A model generated the notes under the pieces. That model ran no database searches. It saw nothing but the letters and a program-made list of their open reading frames with translations, and had not been told where the DNA came from. A program made the position numbers and the translations under genes. This document shows positions 603 to 46,137 of a DNA stretch of 64,000 nucleotides, piece after piece. Every line of letters begins with the position of its first letter. Positions within the stretch are counted from its first letter, which is position 1. The DNA is from Candidatus Acidiferrales bacterium (GTDB lineage: Bacteria; Bacteroidota; Ignavibacteria; Kryptoniales; JAKASW01). Where the stretch lies: assembly GCA_035515795.1 (NCBI GenBank), contig DATJAY010000039.1:142964-206963 (forward strand). Reading direction: 5' to 3'.

Positions 603-1157
603 ATGAGAGTCAAATCTAAGATCGCGGACGTGCAGCAAATGGGCCGGTCCATCACGCGGCTCGCGCACGAAATAATCGAACACAACAAGGGAGCGGCAAA
701 CTTGTGCGTCATCGGCATAAAGACGCGCGGCGATTTTCTTGCCAAAAGAATTGCCGACAAAATCTCGGAAATAGAGAAAGTCAAGGTGCCTCTTGGAACG
801 CTTGACATTACACTCTACCGGGATGACGTCCGGCAAAAGTTGAAACTTCCGGAGCTGAAAAGGACGGAAGTCCACTTCGACATAACCGACAAAAACGTCA
901 TTCTGGTGGACGATGTTCTGTTTACAGGAAGAACAATTCGGTCCGCGCTCGATGCACTAATCGATATCGGAAGGCCGACCACGATACAGCTTGCCGTTCT
1001 TGTGGATCGCGGTCACAGGGAATTGCCGATCAGCGCGGATTATGTCGGGAAAAATCAACCCACGGCGATCAAAGAGTCTATAGTGGTCCACCTTTCGGAA
1101 ATCGACGGAACCGACGAAATACTACTGACGGAGGATGAAGATGGCACAGGGAATTAA
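603..1157 (+). CDS. pyrR: Bifunctional pyr operon regulator / uracil phosphoribosyltransferase PyrR
   Basis: 184 aa. PRPP-binding motif [18 protein letters not shown] and C-terminal [12 protein letters not shown] typical of PyrR. Heads the pyrB-pyrC operon. Confidence 0.93.
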
Positions 1158-2064
1158 AAACCTGCTGGGACTGCGGGATCTCTCACGGGAAGAGATATTG
1201 GAGATACTCGATACTGCCCGGAGTTTTCGAGAGGTACTGGAGAGGCCGATAAAAAAGGTTCCAACTTTGCAGGGAACAACGGTCGTGAATTTGTTTTTTG
1301 AAAGTTCCACACGGACGAGGATTTCATTTGAGCTTGCGGAACGGAGGTTGAGCGCAGATGTCGTTAACTTCGCAGCAAGCGGCAGCAGCGTCTCCAAAGG
1401 CGAAACGTTGAAGGACACCGCAAGGAACATCGAAGCGATGAAAACAGACGTGGTTGTAGTCAGGCATTCATCGACCGGTGCCCCTCACTTTCTCTCGCGT
1501 CTATTGAAATCTCCGGTCATCAATGCCGGAGACGGAATCAACGAACATCCTACTCAAGGGCTTCTTGACATGTTCACCATGCTGGAAAAATTCGGAGACT
1601 TGAAGGGGCTCCGTGTCTGCATCGTAGGCGACATCCAGCACAGCAGAGTGGCGCGGTCAAATATTTTCGGTTTGACAAAATTGGGAGCGGAAGTCGCGGT
1701 GTGCGGACCCAAAACGCTCATCCCGAACTATCTGGAGCAATTTTGCGTGAAGACCTTCTATGATATCGATGAAGCAATAGCCTGGGCAGACGTCTTGAAT
1801 GTTTTGAGGATCCAGCTTGAAAGAGAAGCCGGCGGAGATTTTCCTTCCATCAGAGAGTACAGACTATACTGGGGGATTAACCGCGCGAGATTGGAGAGGG
1901 CAAAAAAGTCGGTCGTGGTAATGCACCCCGGCCCGATCAACCGCGGGGTTGAACTCGATGCGGACGTTGCCGATGGAAAAGCATCCTTGATTCTCGATCA
2001 GGTGACAAACGGAGTGGCCGTGAGAATGGCAGTTTTATATTTAACCGGAGTCAGAAGCTCATGA
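1135..2064 (+). CDS. pyrB: Aspartate carbamoyltransferase catalytic subunit
   Basis: 309 aa. Motifs [11 protein letters not shown] (carbamoyl-phosphate site), HPTQGLLD and HPGPINRG. Overlaps the pyrR end; ATG 1141 is an alternative start. Confidence 0.95.
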
Positions 2065-3347
2065 AAATTTTCCTTAGAAATGCGAGGGTCGTCGATCCGT
2101 CAGGCAAGCATGACGGCATGTTCGACATATTCATTGTCGATGGATTCATACAGGAGATCGGAGGTTCGCTTGGGGGAAACCCTGTGAACCACGAGATAAA
2201 TCTGCGAGGCAAATTTGTCGTACCGGGATTGTTTGACATGCATACCCATCTGAGAGAACCGGGACAGGAATATAAAGAGGACATTTCATCGGGAATAGCG
2301 GCAGCAGCGAACGGAGGCTTCACCGGAATAGCCGCGATGCCGAACACGGATCCGGTTGTGGATTCTGCGGAAGTCGTTAAATATGTTCATGACCGTGCGC
2401 AGCAGTCGGGCTTAGTGACGGTCTATCAAATTGCCGCTATCACGGAAGCAAGAAAAGGCGAACGTCTGTCGGAAATGAAGGACCTCGCTGAGGCAGGTGC
2501 GATTGCGTTCAGTGATGATGGTTCGGCGGTAACGAATTCACATTTGATGAGACTGGCACTTGAATACTCTTCAATGTTGAACAAACCTATCATCCAGCAT
2601 TGCGAAGATCATGATCTTACGAAATCCGGTTCCACAAATGAGAGTCCCGAAACGATCAAATACGGGTTGAAGACCCAGCATCGCGTTTCCGAGGAATTGA
2701 TTCTAAGCCGCGATATAAAGTTGCTCGGAGCATTCAGCGGGAGATATCACGCTACCCATATATCGACGGCAGAGTCAACAGCTTGTATATCCGATGCAAA
2801 AAAGCGCGGTCTGTCCGTGACCTGCGATGTCACTCCTCACCATCTTTTCTTGGACGATAGCTTGTTGTCCACATACGATTCGGATTATAAGGTAAATCCG
2901 CCGCTTCGGACCAAGAAAGACAACGAGGCGCTGATCGCCGCATTGAAAGATGGAACGATCGATGCGATCGCAAGCGATCATGCGCCTCATGCGATACATG
3001 AAAAAGAAGTGGAGTTCGACGCAGCTCCATTCGGAATGATCGGACTTGAGACGACTGTCGGAGCCGTGATGACGAGACTTTATCATGAGAGAGTTTTATC
3101 CTTGCGGCAGATTGTCGATTTACTGTCGGTAAATCCGCGGAAAATACTCGGGCTGCAAGTTCCCACGTTTGAACTTGGTGCCAAAGCGGATATTTCAATA
3201 ATCGATCCGGATTGTGAATGGGTGGTGAACCCCGAAGAATTCAAATCGAAAAGCAGAAACACGGGATTCAAAGGATGGAAATTCAAAGGAAGCGCAGTTG
3301 GAATCATAAACGGAGATAAGTTCTATTTTTCCGAAAGGCTGAAGTAG
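2061..3347 (+). CDS. pyrC: Dihydroorotase
   Basis: 428 aa. Metal-binding [10 protein letters not shown] and ASDHAPH motifs. ATGA overlap with the pyrB stop. Confidence 0.93.
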
Positions 3348-3366
3348 AATCGGACGGCCCAAAGAG

Positions 3367-3975
3367 TCAGCGGCCGAAATTTGTCTTTTTAGCGACCGCC
3401 TTGTGGAGCATTTGAATATATTTTTTCTTTGGGATTTCAATTGCGCCGAACGTTTCCAGATGAGGAGTGGCGTATTGAGTGTCGAGGAGACTGAAACCAT
3501 TTTCCGAAAGATGCGTGATTAGGAAGGCCAGCGCAACCTTTGAAGCTCCGCTCTTCAGACTGAACATAGATTCGCCGAAGAACGCCGTCCCGAGTGCGAC
3601 TCCGTAAAGTCCACCCGCTATCTCGCTGCCATCGATACTCTCAATGCTGTGCGCGAAACCGAGCCGGTGCAGCTCCATGTAGCTTTCAATTATTTCATCG
3701 CTGATCCATGTTTCCTCCCGGTTGGCGCAGCCTTTAATCACCGATTCGAAATTTGTGTCGATGCCAATTTTGAAGATCTGCTTGTTGATCAGTTGCTTTG
3801 TCGACCGAGGTATGTTGAAATTCTCGAGTGGTATGATAGTGCGTGGGTCGGGCGAGTACCATGATATTTTCCCGTCGTCGTCCGCCATTGGAAAATATCC
3901 CATCGAATACGCACCGAGCAAAATGTTCGGGGAGATCATGCGACATATTTTAGGCTTAAAAACGTCGAAAAGCAA
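3367..3975 (-). CDS. aat: Leucyl/phenylalanyl-tRNA--protein transferase
   Basis: 202 aa. Motifs AYSMGYFPM, WISDEIIESYMELHRLGFAHSIE and GGLYGVALGTAFFGESMFS typical of Aat. The start could instead be the internal ATG at 3939. Confidence 0.9.
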   Translation of the reverse strand: MLFDVFKPKICRMISPNILLGAYSMGYFPMADDDGKISWYSPDPRTIIPLENFNIPRSTKQLINKQIFKIGIDTNFESVIKGCANREETWISDEIIESYMELHRLGFAHSIESIDGSEIAGGLYGVALGTAFFGESMFSLKSGASKVALAFLITHLSENGFSLLDTQYATPHLETFGAIEIPKKKYIQMLHKAVAKKTNFGR

Positions 3976-4165
3976 AATCAGCAGCCCCTTATAATTGTGA
4001 GTGGCCCCGGAAGGAGTTCTTTGTAGATCACCGTATTGCGTACCTTGCTTCTTTTGTAAAGCATGGATATATTTTTGATGTAATTTTTAAAATGCCAAAT
4101 AGAAAAGAAAAGTTGCTTATCAGAAAATTTTTAAAGCAAAGTTTCCCGGTCACACAGAGTTTATG

Positions 4166-4202
4166 AAAAGTGTTCCAGCGGTTAGAGGAACACTTTTTTT
4201 TT
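4166..4202 (+). terminator. Intrinsic-terminator-like hairpin (11-bp stem plus U-tract) in the Nif3 leader
   Basis: AAAAGTGTTCC (4166-4176), loop AGCGGTTAGA, GGAACACTTTT (4187-4197), running into T9 (4194-4202). No annotated + strand gene lies upstream of it. Confidence 0.55.
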
Positions 4203-4235
4203 GTCCCTAATAGTTCTAACGGAGCTTTTTTGTCG

Positions 4236-5336
4236 ATGAAGCTTCACGAATTGGTCAAGAGAATTGGTGATGATCTTCCGATTGAATTGGTGTCAGATCA
4301 GGACAATGTCGGATTGATAGTAGGAAATTATGATGATGAATGTGAGAGGATGACGTTAGCTTACGAATTGAACTGCGGCGTTCTTGATGAAGCGTTGAAG
4401 AGTCATTCTAACTTGGTGGTGACATATCACACTCCTCTTTTCCGGCCTAAAAGCTCTTTCACTTCGTCCGTTTCGAAACCTGACCCACTTTTTGAGGCTG
4501 CGCGCAAAAGTATAAACGTGTTTGCAATTCATTCGGCGCTCGACGTGATTAAAGAAGGTTTGAATTTCGACCTAGCGGCTCGACTCGGTTTGAACAAGAT
4601 CAAGTTTCTATCGCCAATGAAGAGCATGCTTTTCAAGATTGTCGTATTTGTGCCGGCATCTCATTCGGACAAAGTGAGGGAAGCAATGGCGAAAGCAGGC
4701 GCAGGGAGAATTGGGAATTATTATGATTGCTCATTCGTAGCAGAGGGGAAAGGAAGTTTTGTCCCGACAGCAGATGCCTTGCCGTATGTCGGACAAACAG
4801 GCAGGTTTGAGCGGGTCGATGAGCATCGGCTTGAGATGATTGTGGAGAAATCTCTCGTTGGGCCGGCGGTGAACGAAATGCTGAAGGTGCATCCGTATGA
4901 AGAGCCGGCCTACGACATCTATCCACTTATGAATAATTCCGCGGAGTATGGATTCGGGGCGATCGGTGAACTCGATGAACCTGTACCCCTAAGGGGATTC
5001 CTTTCCCATGTTAAGAAAATAATTGGAACCGACTTTATAAAAGTGTCCCATTCCCCGGATGTAAATGTAAAGAAGGTCGCTGTATCTGTTGGTTCAGGCG
5101 TTTCATTTTATAAAGAAGCTGTGCATTGTGGTGCGGACATTTTTGTTACCGGAGACGTTAAGCACCATGATTTTCGAGAAGCGCAAAGTCATGGTCCTGT
5201 TTTGGCGGACGCGACGCATCAAGGCACTGAAAGGTTTTTACCTGATGTGATGTTCAAGGTCTTGAAAAAAACGTTTTCCGATTCAGTGGCGATTGAGATA
5301 AGCGAGTTCAAAACAATAAATGCAATTACAATTTAA
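4236..5336 (+). CDS. Nif3-like dinuclear metal centre protein (YbgI / GTP cyclohydrolase 1 type 2 family)
   Basis: N-terminus MKLHELVKRIG, VTYHTPLF, and a C-terminal FVTGDVKHHD...ATHQGTE metal-ligand region. Start set at ATG 4236, because the track start GTG 4170 lies inside the terminator hairpin. Confidence 0.85.
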   Translation: MKLHELVKRIGDDLPIELVSDQDNVGLIVGNYDDECERMTLAYELNCGVLDEALKSHSNLVVTYHTPLFRPKSSFTSSVSKPDPLFEAARKSINVFAIHSALDVIKEGLNFDLAARLGLNKIKFLSPMKSMLFKIVVFVPASHSDKVREAMAKAGAGRIGNYYDCSFVAEGKGSFVPTADALPYVGQTGRFERVDEHRLEMIVEKSLVGPAVNEMLKVHPYEEPAYDIYPLMNNSAEYGFGAIGELDEPVPLRGFLSHVKKIIGTDFIKVSHSPDVNVKKVAVSVGSGVSFYKEAVHCGADIFVTGDVKHHDFREAQSHGPVLADATHQGTERFLPDVMFKVLKKTFSDSVAIEISEFKTINAITI

Positions 5337-5354
5337 AGTATCCAGGAGATCAAA

Positions 5355-6095
5355 GTGGCTGTCAAGGATAAACTGAAAGCGTTGTTTCAACTTCAGCAAG
5401 TCGATTTGAAATTAGACGGATTATTAGAAGAGCGCGGAGATTTACCGGCTGAAGTGGACGAACTTGAGAAGAAGATCACGGATTTGAAGACGCAGATTAA
5501 GGAGAACGATGAATTTTTAAGGAAGGCTGTCGTCAGAAAAAAAGAAATTGAAAAAGAGCTCGATGAACTTAGAAAAAGGATTGACAAATATACCGACATG
5601 CGCGTTAAGGTGAAAACTAACCGCGAGTACGATGCACTGAGCAAACAGATCGACAATTCCAAGGAAAAGGTTCAGGGGCTTCATAAAGAACTTGAAGATA
5701 TACAGTCGAAAGAAACCACGTCGAGCCGGGACGTTGAAAAGCTAAAAAAGGAGTACGAAGGCGAGGAAGAAGCGTATTCTTCGAAGAAAGTTGAGCTTGA
5801 AGAGCTTGTATCCCTGACTCATGATGAAGAAAAGCGTTATATTAAAGAGCGAGAAAAGCATGTACAGAAAATCGATCGCCAGAGCTTTGCCCGTTATGAG
5901 ATGATAAGGAAGGCTACGAAAGGAAAGGCGATTGTGCCGGTGGTGCGCAGGAACGCATGCGGAGGATGCTACAATGTTCTTCCGCCGCAGAGACTTCTTG
6001 ACCTGCGCCAGATGGAGAGAATATTTACCTGCGACCATTGCGGGAGAATTCTTGTCCCCAACGAAATTGTTGAGGAAACTGCCCGTGAGTTATGA
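5355..6095 (+). CDS. Coiled-coil / C4 zinc-ribbon protein (COG1579 / DUF164 family)
   Basis: 246 aa. Long Lys/Glu-rich heptad region followed by CGGCYNVLPP...CDHCGRIL (CxxC..CxxC). GTG start with an AGGAG RBS. Usual partner of Nif3 genes. Confidence 0.8.
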   Translation: MAVKDKLKALFQLQQVDLKLDGLLEERGDLPAEVDELEKKITDLKTQIKENDEFLRKAVVRKKEIEKELDELRKRIDKYTDMRVKVKTNREYDALSKQIDNSKEKVQGLHKELEDIQSKETTSSRDVEKLKKEYEGEEEAYSSKKVELEELVSLTHDEEKRYIKEREKHVQKIDRQSFARYEMIRKATKGKAIVPVVRRNACGGCYNVLPPQRLLDLRQMERIFTCDHCGRILVPNEIVEETAREL

Positions 6096-41660: not shown

Positions 41661-42716
41661 ATGGCTGAGACTTTAACTCTTAAAAGCGTTTTGCAGGACC
41701 ACACCGCCGAGGGTGAGCTTTACACCAAACTTGAGAATGATTGGGTTTTGTGTTACGCGTGCGGCCATCGGTGCAAGATCAAACCCGGACGCGACGGGAT
41801 TTGCAAGGTGCGGTTTAATAAAGACGGAAAACTTTTTGTGCCGCGGGGATATGCTGCCGGGATTCAGCTCGACCCTATTGAGAAGAAACCGTTCTTCCAT
41901 GCATTCCCCGGGAGAAGCGCGGTAAGCTTCGGAATGCTGGGATGTGATTACCATTGTTCTTATTGTCAGAATTGGATTACGAGCCAGGCGATCCGAGATC
42001 CGTCCGCCGCCGCACAGCCGGAAGTAATCGAACCTGAAAAAATAGTCGAGCTCGCATTGCTCTATAAATCTCCGGTCTTGGTTTCAACATACAATGAGCC
42101 GCTCATCACGAGTGAATGGGCCGCAGAGATCTTCAAGCTGGCCAAGCCCTACGGGATTCGCGGCGCATACGTATCCAACGGCAACGCGACGCCGGAAGTG
42201 ATAGATTACATAACTCCTTATGTAGATCTGTATAAAGTCGACTTGAAAGGATTTGACGATAAAAGGTACAGGCAGCTTGGCGGAAGATTGGAAGTGGTTC
42301 TAAATGCCATCCATCTTCTGAAAGAAAAAGGACTCTGGGTGGAAATCGTGACGCTGTTGGTGCCGGGATTCAATGACGGCATAGAGGAATTGAAAGGCAT
42401 AGCTAAATTTATTGCGTCGGTCTCTCCGGAGATTCCATGGCACATCACGGCGTTTCATCAGGACTACAAGATGCTGGATAGGGAAAGCACCGATGCAAAG
42501 ATGCTGATGAACGCCGCAAGAATTGGAAAAGAAACGGGACTATATTTTGTATATGCCGGCAATTTGCCCGGCATGGTTGAAAACCTTGAAAATACCAACT
42601 GCCACAGATGTGGAGAGCTGCTCGTGGAACGAAGCGGATTCAGAGTGTTGAGGAATAATCTGATTGACGGTTCATGCAGAAAGTGCAAAGCAAGGATCCC
42701 TGGAGTATGGAAGTAA
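41661..42716 (+). CDS. amrS: AmmeMemoRadiSam system radical SAM enzyme
   Basis: 351 aa. N-terminal Cys cluster CYACGHRC..C, radical SAM motif GCDYHCSYCQNW, C-terminal CHRCG...C..C. Followed by AMMECR1 and MEMO genes. Confidence 0.88.
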   Translation: MAETLTLKSVLQDHTAEGELYTKLENDWVLCYACGHRCKIKPGRDGICKVRFNKDGKLFVPRGYAAGIQLDPIEKKPFFHAFPGRSAVSFGMLGCDYHCSYCQNWITSQAIRDPSAAAQPEVIEPEKIVELALLYKSPVLVSTYNEPLITSEWAAEIFKLAKPYGIRGAYVSNGNATPEVIDYITPYVDLYKVDLKGFDDKRYRQLGGRLEVVLNAIHLLKEKGLWVEIVTLLVPGFNDGIEELKGIAKFIASVSPEIPWHITAFHQDYKMLDRESTDAKMLMNAARIGKETGLYFVYAGNLPGMVENLENTNCHRCGELLVERSGFRVLRNNLIDGSCRKCKARIPGVWK

Positions 42717-43327
42717 ATCCAAACTGTTCTGAGATGGGATATGCTCTGACAAGCGAAGAGAAATCATATCTTCTTCGTGTCGCGCGCGGCTCCATAGAAG
42801 CGGCGGTGAAAAGAAAAGTCTATTCTCCGATCAAACCAGCTGATCAGAATTTGGCAAGGGCAGCGGGCGTTTTTGTTACGATTAAGAAGAACGGCGAGCT
42901 GCGAGGTTGTATCGGCTTAATTGAGCCTGAGTTCCCGTTATACCAGATCGTATCGAAAATGGCGGTGAGAGCCGCTACGTGTGACCCGCGATTCGAATCG
43001 GTTCGAGAAGATGAATTGAAGGATTTACGGATAGAAATTTCCATACTCTCTCCTTTGAAAAAACTCAGCACCATAGAGGAAATTGAGATCGGACGCCATG
43101 GTCTTATCATCGAGAGGGGAATTCACCGCGGCTTACTGTTACCTCAGGTGGCAACCGAAAACAATTGGAACAGGGAAGAATTCTTGGAATATACATGCGT
43201 AAAAGCCGGACTGGACACGGAAGATTACAAGAGTCCGGATGCGAGGCTGTATATTTTTTCCGCCGAGATCTTCGGCGAAAAGGAATTGGGAATTCCTTCA
43301 GAGGATAATTTTGCAGAACGAAAATGA
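42707..43327 (+). CDS. amrA: AmmeMemoRadiSam system protein A (AMMECR1 domain)
   Basis: Motifs GVFVTIKKNGELRGCIG, DPRF and GLLLPQV. ATG 42707 overlaps the amrS end by 10 nt. Confidence 0.85.
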   Translation: MEVNPNCSEMGYALTSEEKSYLLRVARGSIEAAVKRKVYSPIKPADQNLARAAGVFVTIKKNGELRGCIGLIEPEFPLYQIVSKMAVRAATCDPRFESVREDELKDLRIEISILSPLKKLSTIEEIEIGRHGLIIERGIHRGLLLPQVATENNWNREEFLEYTCVKAGLDTEDYKSPDARLYIFSAEIFGEKELGIPSEDNFAERK

Positions 43328-44153
43328 GTCAGTACGCCCGCCCGCCGTTGCGGGGTTATTCTATCCTGTCGGGAAGGATAGCCTGGCAAAAACGGTTAAG
43401 AAATTACTTGGTGAGGCAAGGGAAAACATTACGGGCGACGTTCCTAAGAGAATTTCGGGAATCATTTCACCACACGCGGGGTATTTGTATAGCGGATATA
43501 CAGCGGCGCATGCATATTCTCTTTTGCATAGAAATCAGTTCGCCACTGTAGCTATTATTTCTCCAAGTCACCATGAATATTTTGACGGCGTATCTGTCTT
43601 TTCTGGTAAAGCTTATTCGACCCCTCTGGGTGAGATAAAAATAAATTGTGAAACCAGGGAAAAATTTCTGGGACTTGCAGGCGATGTTGCGGTTAAATCT
43701 ACGCTTGGACATGGAGCAGAGCACGCCATAGAAGTACAGTTGCCATTTCTTCAATCGACCCTCGGAGATTTCGAACTCCTTCCAATCGTGATGGGCGACC
43801 AGAAGCGTGAATATTGCAGGGTGGTAGGCGGAGCGCTGGGCAATATTGCGTCTGGCTCCGACGTCTTGATTGTAGCTAGCTCCGATTTGTCTCACTACTA
43901 TGACTATGATACGGCTAACGACATGGATAAAGTATGCATAAATGATATAATGAGCCTGGACCCGGAAATTTTATTAAGCGATATCGAGAATCGCAGATGT
44001 GAGGCGTGCGGCGGTGGACCGATCGCCTCCTCCTTGTACGCTTCAAAGAATCTAGGGCTGAATAAAGTTTCACTTTTGAACCACTGCAATTCAGGCGATA
44101 CATCCGGTGATAAGTCGGCAGTCGTCGGATACTTATCAGCGATTATCTCATGA
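43311..44153 (+). CDS. amrB: AmmeMemoRadiSam system protein B (MEMO1 family)
   Basis: Motifs RPPAVAGLFYP, ISPHAGYLYSG, EHAIEVQLPFLQ and SSDLSHY. The start is uncertain: TTG 43311 is the only in-frame candidate near the conserved N-terminus. Confidence 0.8.
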   Translation: MQNENESVRPPAVAGLFYPVGKDSLAKTVKKLLGEARENITGDVPKRISGIISPHAGYLYSGYTAAHAYSLLHRNQFATVAIISPSHHEYFDGVSVFSGKAYSTPLGEIKINCETREKFLGLAGDVAVKSTLGHGAEHAIEVQLPFLQSTLGDFELLPIVMGDQKREYCRVVGGALGNIASGSDVLIVASSDLSHYYDYDTANDMDKVCINDIMSLDPEILLSDIENRRCEACGGGPIASSLYASKNLGLNKVSLLNHCNSGDTSGDKSAVVGYLSAIIS

Positions 44154-45034
44154 TAAGACCGCTACGTCCTTTTTCCTTGGTCGGACCAGGAAGGGTGGGG
44201 TCCAGTTTGGCAATGGCGCTTGAGGGAAAGGGGTGGGAATGCAGGCACATTCTCCCAAAAGACAGGAGTGAATCGCAACGCAGGAAATTAAGCTCAGTAT
44301 TTCCTGCTGCAGACATCGTAGAACGTGCATCGTCTCTGGCCGACGATTTTGAAATTCTGTTTATAGCCGTACAGGACGATGAGATCGAGAATGTGGTTGA
44401 CGGACTCTTGGCTGTAAATAATATCTCCTGGAAATCAAAAGTTGTGCTCCACACGAGCGGTGTCAAAAGCGTTGGGCTCCTTCAGCCGCTCAGGGGCCGT
44501 GGTGCATCGGTCGGCGCGCTTCACCCGATTGCGGCATTTGCAAATCGGTATCAACCGCGGTCGGCAAGTGAAATCTATTATGATTTTTTCGGTGATAAGA
44601 AAGCTCAATCAGTTGCACGACGGATTGCAGGGTTGTTAAACTCAAAGTTAATCATACTAAAGAACGAAAGACAAAGAATGCTGCTCCATATTGCTAGTGC
44701 GATTGCTTCCAACTCGACCGTCGTTGCCATTAGGAGCGCGGAAGAACTCGTATCCGGTTTTATCCATCCCCGGGACGCGAAGGCGTTGATGACAGCGCTG
44801 CTGTCATCAACGGTCAGTAATTTATCCGAAAACGAAGGGATGAAGTCTCTGACAGGTCCGTTGGCGCGGGCGGATATCGAAGTGATCTCGGATCACATAA
44901 AGGCGCTTGAAAGCAAGAAAACGCTGTTGCAGTTTTATAAGTCATGGTCGCTGCTCGGAATTGACTCGCTTCTTAGAGACGGGCATGACAGGAAATCTCG
45001 CTTGAAAAAAATAAAAGATATTTTGTCCCGGTAG
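44150..45034 (+). CDS. Rossmann-fold / DUF2520 domain protein (ProC/F420-oxidoreductase-like)
   Basis: 294 aa. FSLVGPGRVGSSLAMAL dinucleotide-binding loop and a C-terminal DUF2520-like helical half. ATGA overlap with the amrB stop. Confidence 0.75.
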   Translation: MIRPLRPFSLVGPGRVGSSLAMALEGKGWECRHILPKDRSESQRRKLSSVFPAADIVERASSLADDFEILFIAVQDDEIENVVDGLLAVNNISWKSKVVLHTSGVKSVGLLQPLRGRGASVGALHPIAAFANRYQPRSASEIYYDFFGDKKAQSVARRIAGLLNSKLIILKNERQRMLLHIASAIASNSTVVAIRSAEELVSGFIHPRDAKALMTALLSSTVSNLSENEGMKSLTGPLARADIEVISDHIKALESKKTLLQFYKSWSLLGIDSLLRDGHDRKSRLKKIKDILSR

Positions 45035-45060
45035 CCGGGGCTCTCTCAGAGGAGGAAAAA

Positions 45061-46137
45061 GTGAAATTCAAAGCATTGATCGCAAGTGGAGGAAGAGGAA
45101 CGCGGCTTCGACCGATAACTCACACACAGAATAAACACCTCATTCCAATTGCGAACAAACCGATACTGCATTACGCCATAGAAGCGGCGTTGTCGGCAGG
45201 AATAACCGAGATCGGGATCGTCACGAATGCGGACAGCAGCGAGGTCCCTCGTGCCATCGGCGATGGTTCGAAATGGGGAGCCAGGATAACCTACATTCCC
45301 CAGGAAGCACCTCTTGGACTTGCTCACGTCGTGAAAATCTCTCGAGACTTCATCGGTACCGACAATTTCATTTTCTATCTCGGCGACAACATGGTGGTGG
45401 GCGGAGTGAAGCGATACCTTGAAGAATTTGAGAAGAGCAAGGCGAATTGCTTTCTCACCCTTGCGAAAGTCAAAGACCCAGAAAGGTTCGGAGTTCCGCA
45501 GATAAAAAATAGAATGATCGTGAGAGTCGAAGAGAAGCCGAAGCGTCCGAAGAGCAGTTATGCCGTGGCAGGAATTTATATTTATGATCGGCACATTTTC
45601 GATGCCGTGAATAAAATAAAGCCGAGTGCGCGCGGGGAATTAGAAATATCGGATGCACATCAATATTTAATCGACCATGGTTACAAGGTCGGGTACGCTG
45701 AGATAACAGGATGGTGGAAGGACACGGGTAAGCCGGCCGATCTCCTCGAAGCCAACAGACTTGTACTTGAGAACAGCGAGCCGTCTATCGAAGCGGGCGT
45801 AGAAGTAGACTCACACAGCGACATCGCCGGAAGAGTGATTTTGCAGAAAGGATGCAAGATTTCAGGGAGCAAAATTCGAGGACCTGTAATCATTGGCGAA
45901 AATGCCGTTATTGAAAATAGTTATATCGGTCCTTTTACCTCTGTAGGAGCGCGCTCCCAGGTAAAGAACAGCGAAGTGGAGTATAGCATAGTTCTGAAGG
46001 AGTGCAAGATTTTGGATGCCGGCATGCGCATCGAGGGGAGTCTTCTCGGAAACGGTGTGGAGATCGTCAGGGCTGACGGCAAACCGCGCGTGCAGCGCTT
46101 CATGATCGGTGATCAGAGCAGGGTGGAAGTACCGTGA
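45061..46137 (+). CDS. Glucose-1-phosphate thymidylyltransferase-like sugar nucleotidyltransferase (long form with left-handed beta-helix tail)
   Basis: 358 aa, GTG start. ALIASGGRGTRLRPITHTQNKHLIPIANKPIL and a hexapeptide-repeat C-terminus. Confidence 0.85.
   Translation: MKFKALIASGGRGTRLRPITHTQNKHLIPIANKPILHYAIEAALSAGITEIGIVTNADSSEVPRAIGDGSKWGARITYIPQEAPLGLAHVVKISRDFIGTDNFIFYLGDNMVVGGVKRYLEEFEKSKANCFLTLAKVKDPERFGVPQIKNRMIVRVEEKPKRPKSSYAVAGIYIYDRHIFDAVNKIKPSARGELEISDAHQYLIDHGYKVGYAEITGWWKDTGKPADLLEANRLVLENSEPSIEAGVEVDSHSDIAGRVILQKGCKISGSKIRGPVIIGENAVIENSYIGPFTSVGARSQVKNSEVEYSIVLKECKILDAGMRIEGSLLGNGVEIVRADGKPRVQRFMIGDQSRVEVP

Follow-up and report, generated by a model that had tools for sequence, protein, structure and literature searches.

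AmmeMemoRadiSam, a set of three genes for a radical SAM enzyme (AmrS), an AMMECR1-family protein (AmrA) and a MEMO1-family protein (AmrB), is among the most widespread of those conserved gene sets whose chemistry, to our knowledge, is still unexplained, and has the eukaryotic relatives MEMO1 and AMMECR1. Here we consider such a trio, together with the gene for a Rossmann and DUF2520 protein directly behind it, in a stretch of 64,000 nucleotides from Candidatus Acidiferrales bacterium (contig DATJAY010000039.1, positions 142,964 to 206,963 of the forward strand; below, the window).

The fourth protein belongs to DUF2520/COG5495, the family of PanG, which comprises ketopantoate reductases such as FTT1388 of Francisella and Rv3603c of M. 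tuberculosis. A passage of PMC11626117, citing Pepi et al. 2022, presents Rv3603c as PanG, the exclusive ketopantoate reductase of M. tuberculosis. According to a passage of PMC4572677, the homologues of a DUF2520 protein include FTT1388 of Francisella, EF1861 of Enterococcus and one from C. difficile, the PanG enzymes in the work by Miller et al. (2013), and an excerpt of PMC4684696 likewise calls it a homologue of Francisella PanG (FTT_1388).

The trio of the window is an ordinary AmmeMemoRadiSam system. All three proteins clear the curated cut-offs of the models for the set: amrS (41661..42716, + strand, 351 amino acids) scores 257.4 bits with TIGR04337 (cut-off 220) and matches PF04055; amrA (42707..43327, +) scores 186.6 bits with TIGR04335 (cut-off 99) and 190.7 bits with PF01871; amrB (43311..44153, +) scores 269 bits with TIGR04336 (cut-off 26) and 205.5 bits with PF01875. 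The genes are encoded together, being adjacent, co-oriented and overlapping, and within the trio we find no difference from the described system. The DUF2520 gene (44150..45034, +) follows immediately. The initial annotation of this DNA proposed that its product, as a fourth partner of NAD(P)-type reductase character, would be a clue to the chemistry. We believe that the neighbour is instead a PanG-type ketopantoate reductase within a lineage-specific housekeeping operon, a reading to which we give a probability of about 0.7; most likely, it is not a fourth part of AmmeMemoRadiSam.

The DUF2520 protein and pantothenate synthesis

The protein of 294 amino acids carries GPGRVGSSLAMAL at residues 12-24, and its matches to PF10727 (Rossmann-like, 51.2 bits) and PF10728 (DUF2520, 74.2 bits) both exceed the cut-offs, which is the two-domain architecture of PanG/COG5495. 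Its likeness to PanG (FTT1388; Rv3603c) is one of family domains and not of direct sequence comparison; as a difference, the window gene adjoins amrB and has no pan gene beside it in the source genome. The homologues carry the JGI label DUF2520/COG5495 family, and no model in the NCBIfam search gives the protein a name. By the names of its homologues the source organism belongs to Candidatus Kryptoniota, and the DUF2520 matches in the control genomes of B. thetaiotaomicron and T. maritima agree with the GTDB phylum Bacteroidota. The invariant residues are kept (G12, G14, D76, H101, G104, H125, P126, H180, N188, G236, P237 and R240 in the numbering of the window protein), and this set is identical across all three genomic contexts in which the gene is found, the amrB-linked and panB-linked ones included.

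Among known structures, 3D1L (Bacteroides fragilis BF3122, a putative NADP oxidoreductase) and 2I76 (a hypothetical protein of Thermotoga maritima) show near full-length homology, with single-sequence E-values of 1e-10 and 6e-9 and a profile E-value of 1e-35; both come from structural genomics and have no function assigned to them. DUF2520 without AmrB is seen in the control genome of Bacteroides thetaiotaomicron, a relative of the organism from which 3D1L derives. PanE/ApbA (TIGR00745) is a separate family, although the predicted reaction is the same and the N-terminal Rossmann fold is present in both, with weak profile matches to 3HWR, 3G17 and 3GHY.

The predicted role is the NADPH-dependent reduction of 2-dehydropantoate, the product of PanB, to (R)-pantoate, which would feed PanC; the protein would fill the ketopantoate reductase step in a genome that has no PanE. 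The source assembly, 100% complete, contains panB (343 bits) and panC (336 bits), both on other contigs, and a single copy of the DUF2520 gene, while the best panE match in it, at 22.6 bits, stays below the cut-off of 141. Among 121 sampled genomes from the source organism's class, panB is found in 116, DUF2520 in 109, and PanE above the cut-off in only 17. DUF2520 is absent and PanE present in G073; DUF2520 is absent also from three complete genomes that lack panB (G029, G101 and G137) and keep amrB and amrS.

Some relatives have DUF2520 linked to pan genes. In G041, G161 and G125 (family f5 in our numbering), in G145 (f12) and in G065 (f8), DUF2520, panB and panC form a string whose genes overlap or abut, so that among the 10 class genomes with DUF2520 away from amrB, 5 have it at the head of a panB-panC operon; G065 has no Amr genes at all. 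All 109 genomes have a single DUF2520 match, and in no genome do an amrB-linked and a panB-linked copy occur together; thus, the two kinds replace each other rather than coexist.

Two points weigh against the assignment to the pantothenate pathway. The source genome contains ilvC (317 bits), whose product could cover ketopantoate reduction as a second activity; DUF2520 is therefore not strictly required, and the gap in the pathway is suggestive rather than compelling. Furthermore, four of the five panB-linked copies belong to a divergent long-branch clade, and only the copy of G065 is of the main type.

The presence of ilvC also leaves room for the proposal that the protein is neither PanG nor an Amr partner but another housekeeping reductase acting on a 2-oxo acid or a similar substrate, with IlvC doing the ketopantoate reduction. 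It agrees with the lack of a name from the NCBIfam models and with the gene neighbourhoods outside the trio. In families without stand-alone amrB, the neighbours of DUF2520, identified from their translations, are related to translation and are not pan genes: PrmC-Dtd in f15 and f59, CysS in f11, f6 and f13, and ribosomal protein L31 in f53. Other phyla likewise place it away from pan genes; three distant copies on metagenome contigs lie with ileS-lspA-lgt-rluD, with a glycosyltransferase and M16 peptidases, and with hrcA-grpE-dnaK. This proposal does not sit well with the family members whose ketopantoate reductase activity was shown experimentally, with the DUF2520-panB-panC operons of five class genomes, or with the joint absence of panB and DUF2520 from three complete genomes, and we consider it quite unlikely.

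DUF2520 with and without the trio

The maximum-likelihood tree of 50 DUF2520 proteins of the class or phylum with 3 outgroups contains no separate clade of amrB-linked proteins, and no specialised subfamily is evident. The family clades track taxonomy, and the amrB-linked label needs 5 changes on the tree; sequences of f15 and f59, which lack the trio, nest by an amrB-linked sequence of f8. The outgroups from other phyla fall within an unresolved backbone, and with the deep nodes unresolved, vertical inheritance and the transfer of an amrAB-DUF2520 block into G002 (a genome of another class) or Marinimicrobia are indistinguishable.

The long-branch clade mentioned above consists of a short form of the protein (240-247 amino acids), which is panB-linked in G041, G161, G125 and G145 (loci L059, L061, L062 and L063) and has 100/100 support. 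G145 belongs to f12, and its DUF2520 groups with the f5 sequences, which suggests a transfer of the whole panG-panB-panC operon.

DUF2520 and the trio are gained and lost independently. DUF2520 is present in every sampled genome of f15 (8/8), f53 (12/12) and f7 (12/12), and amrS and stand-alone amrB in none of them; a few f53 and f7 genomes have only a fused Memo::AMMECR1 open reading frame. Most of f5 has the trio without DUF2520, as do 24 f20 genomes (AmrB in 24 and DUF2520 in 0 of 63 genomes) and 4 of the 5 control genomes matched by AmrB and AmrS, the remaining one being T. maritima. DUF2520 thus does not co-occur with the trio across genomes in the manner of a four-component system.

With an AmrB alignment as the probe, the species genomes of the whole GTDB gave 80 loci, which come from archaea and a wide range of phyla. 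In 10 of these, from Bacteroidota of the Ignavibacteria/Kryptoniota type, DUF2520 stands immediately downstream, and it is found beside Amr genes in two Neomarinimicrobiota (5825-6655 of L116, in the order amrB-DUF2520, and 6302-7189 of L104). It is near AmrB in none of the other loci, about 65, which include Zixibacteria, Acidobacteriota, Omnitrophota, Calditrichota, Proteobacteria, Actinomycetota, Planctomycetota, Verrucomicrobiota, Chloroflexota and many archaea. The system runs without DUF2520 in most of life. The survey for an adjacent DUF2520 gene suggested by the initial annotation thus has a divided outcome: the pair is found class-wide, in G002 and in the two Neomarinimicrobiota, and is missing from the loci of other phyla and archaea. 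Since it is class-wide, the adjacency cannot be called absent from other loci within the lineage.

The same 80 loci bear on a combined proposal, i.e., that DUF2520 is a ketopantoate reductase while AmrA and AmrB act in, or off, the metabolism of pantoate, pantothenate or coenzyme A (CoA), the coupling reflecting shared regulation. The adjacency as such would suit it no less than it suits a fourth component. However, panB or panC is found within none of the 80 loci, panB and panC of the source genome lie on other contigs, the full-text searches yielded no supporting literature, and archaeal amrB sits with genes of the mevalonate pathway instead; we regard the proposal as very improbable.

The archaeal loci (L113-L117, L123-L124, L129, L131, L133-L135, L146 and L149) have amrB without amrA or amrS nearby. 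The gene lies in a conserved cluster which, as identified from translations, contains the genes for ribosomal protein S2 (13 loci), mevalonate kinase (8), isopentenyl phosphate kinase (11) and type-2 isopentenyl diphosphate isomerase (11).

Persistence of the amrB-DUF2520 order

The adjacency of amrB and DUF2520 is more than chance. DUF2520 was counted as the next gene when its domain began on the same strand 420-1300 nt past the AmrB match. A stand-alone high-scoring AmrB is present in 72 of the 121 class genomes; DUF2520 is next to it in 53, both genes are present and apart in 8, and 11 have no DUF2520 match. The phylum sample adds G002, discussed below, and G243 and G131, which have both genes apart.

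A number of these observations count against a merely incidental neighbourhood and, to this extent, against our interpretation. The adjacency is unusually persistent, covering 53 of the 61 class genomes with both genes and 16 of 18 families. In 46 of the 53 genomes the spacing falls within 420-470 nt, i.e., the gap is near zero (444 nt in the window, where the genes overlap). The linked DUF2520 proteins outside the genus of the window are only 22-32% identical to the window protein (tblastn, 30 loci), so the gene order has outlived most of the sequence similarity. In G002, which belongs to another class and is the single case of this kind in the phylum sample, DUF2520 starts 27 nt past amrB, and in one of the two Neomarinimicrobiota (L104) the order is different, amrB-amrA-DUF2520. 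Finally, within the class amrB is more faithfully accompanied by DUF2520 than the amrAB pair is by amrS. The latter gene is found in the families that have amrB, but f1, to which the window belongs, and f59 are the only ones where it adjoins amrA-amrB; in the rest it is on a different contig or at a distance of megabases. As amrS is mostly unlinked, the conserved core in the class is amrA-amrB-DUF2520. Examples of the distances are amrB at 2.98 Mb and amrS at 0.50 Mb in G097:C1, and 1.12 Mb and 4.13 Mb in G354:C1.

It is the persistence and tightness of the pair, its better conservation compared to the amrS linkage, and its recurrence in Marinimicrobia in a different order that keep alive the proposal of the initial annotation, a genuine fourth component of AmmeMemoRadiSam (in Ignavibacteria/Kryptoniota and Marinimicrobia) with NAD(P)H-dependent redox chemistry on what AmrA, AmrB and AmrS consume or make. 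The ATGA overlap with amrB, described below, and the deep divergence of the linked proteins argue in the same direction. Nevertheless, the proposal is unlikely. The phyletic patterns are uncoupled both ways; the gene is single-copy and, in part of the genomes where it is not beside amrB, stands with panB-panC; the linked proteins show neither a distinct subfamily nor a change of residues; DUF2520 is missing from about 65 loci of archaea and other phyla; and the family has another, demonstrated function. Taken with panB and panC in a genome without panE, the PanG identity, the single copy and the independent loss leave the idea of a partner unsupported, and the same evidence, along with the five panB-panC operons, undermines the use of the neighbour as a clue to the chemistry.

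DUF2520 might, in the Bacteroidota of the Ignavibacteria/Kryptoniota type and in Marinimicrobia, work with AmrA and AmrB, either by reducing a keto intermediate of the system or by tying the system to chemistry related to pantoate and CoA; if true, this cooperation would be the first biochemical handle on AmmeMemoRadiSam, but we hold it to be unlikely as well. That the protein reduces ketopantoate, and that it has no functional tie to the system, we infer from the genomic data, and we allow a small chance of a real functional link between DUF2520 and the Amr proteins.

We presume, accordingly to the preferred PanG reading, that amrA-amrB-panG(-rmlA) may be an operon of ancient origin, made up of constitutively expressed housekeeping genes, within this part of the Fibrobacteres-Chlorobi-Bacteroidetes (FCB) group, and that amrS may have joined its 5' end in the family of the window. 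The place behind amrB would then be an old arrangement of the Bacteroidota of the Ignavibacteria/Kryptoniota type and of some Marinimicrobia, with no shared chemistry indicated. All components are members of known families. The initial annotation was not aware of a description of the association, and the full-text literature searches bear this out, as no paper describing or discussing amrB-DUF2520 was found.

The gene string of the window and other Memo genes

Five open reading frames, all on the + strand, fill 41661-46137; the last one, rmlA_long (45061..46137, +; TIGR01208, 448 bits), codes for a long-form glucose-1-phosphate thymidylyltransferase. The translation of amrS contains the CX3CX2C motif CDYHCSYC within CDYHCSYCQNW and extra cysteine clusters, CxxCxxxC...C at the N-terminus and CxxC...CxxC at the C-terminus, as the initial annotation had it. 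Its reading of the junctions also agrees with the coordinates. The amrS and amrA genes overlap by 10 nt if amrA starts at ATG 42707 (an alternative in-frame ATG is at 42674). The overlap between amrA and amrB is 17 nt, from the TTG start of amrB at 43311 to the amrA stop at 43327; the longest amrB frame opens at ATG 43239, and the hidden Markov model match begins at residue 33 of this long frame. The stop of amrB and the ATG of the 294-residue DUF2520 protein share ATGA at 44150-44153, a 4-nt overlap. The start of rmlA_long is 26 nt past DUF2520 and is preceded by GGAGGA.

The promoter and terminator scan revealed no terminator-like hairpin between the operon genes, and its counts are at or under the shuffle expectation. 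The arrangement suggests that amrS-amrA-amrB-DUF2520-rmlA is a single co-transcribed and translationally coupled string, with rmlA_long probably in the same transcript as the four genes before it.

The initial annotation had also considered that DUF2520 might instead be linked to this downstream sugar-nucleotidyltransferase gene. A true tie of DUF2520 to rmlA was rejected: rmlA_long is present in just 37 of the 121 class genomes and adjacent in about 18, families f52, f56 and f58 hold the amrB-DUF2520 pair without it, and in the families lacking the trio DUF2520 never pairs with rmlA. It follows DUF2520 in f1, f3, f4, f54, f55, f57 and f10. In three loci without DUF2520 (L007, L077 and L078) the long-form rmlA stands directly behind amrB, i.e., the amrAB-rmlA linkage survives the loss of the intervening gene; L007 is from G073, and it is the loss of DUF2520 in this genome that brings its amrB directly before rmlA.

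The source genome has a second AmmeMemoRadiSam system on the minus strand (G000:C16:53276-58311; 777-5812 of locus L151). It comprises amrS2 (414 amino acids; 371 bits with TIGR04337, above the window copy), a fused Memo::AMMECR1 protein of 549 amino acids, and a protein of 787 amino acids with the spermine/spermidine-synthase domain PF01564. A third, weaker Memo-family match (G000:C26:20822-21634, minus strand, 83 bits) lies in an open reading frame of about 370 amino acids and represents a separate Memo-like paralogue, which many class genomes have too. In f6, f9, f11 and f13, which are among the families without a high-scoring AmrB, the sole Memo matches are weak and fall in open reading frames of about 400 amino acids.

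Eight of the 80 AmrB loci, from Acidobacteriota, Nitrospiraceae, Verrucomicrobiae, Hebobacteria and others, have a homologue of the 787-residue protein beside a fused Memo::AMMECR1 gene. As a neighbour of the fused-type system that recurs across phyla, this large spermidine-synthase-like protein is more promising than DUF2520 as a candidate extra partner. Any true extra partner of AmmeMemoRadiSam would be valuable, considering how widespread the set is and that it has eukaryotic relatives. For the lineage of the window, amrA-amrB-DUF2520 is a stable operon marker; the DUF2520 neighbour per se is probably no clue to the chemistry of AmmeMemoRadiSam and would instead fill an annotation gap in the vitamin B5 pathway.

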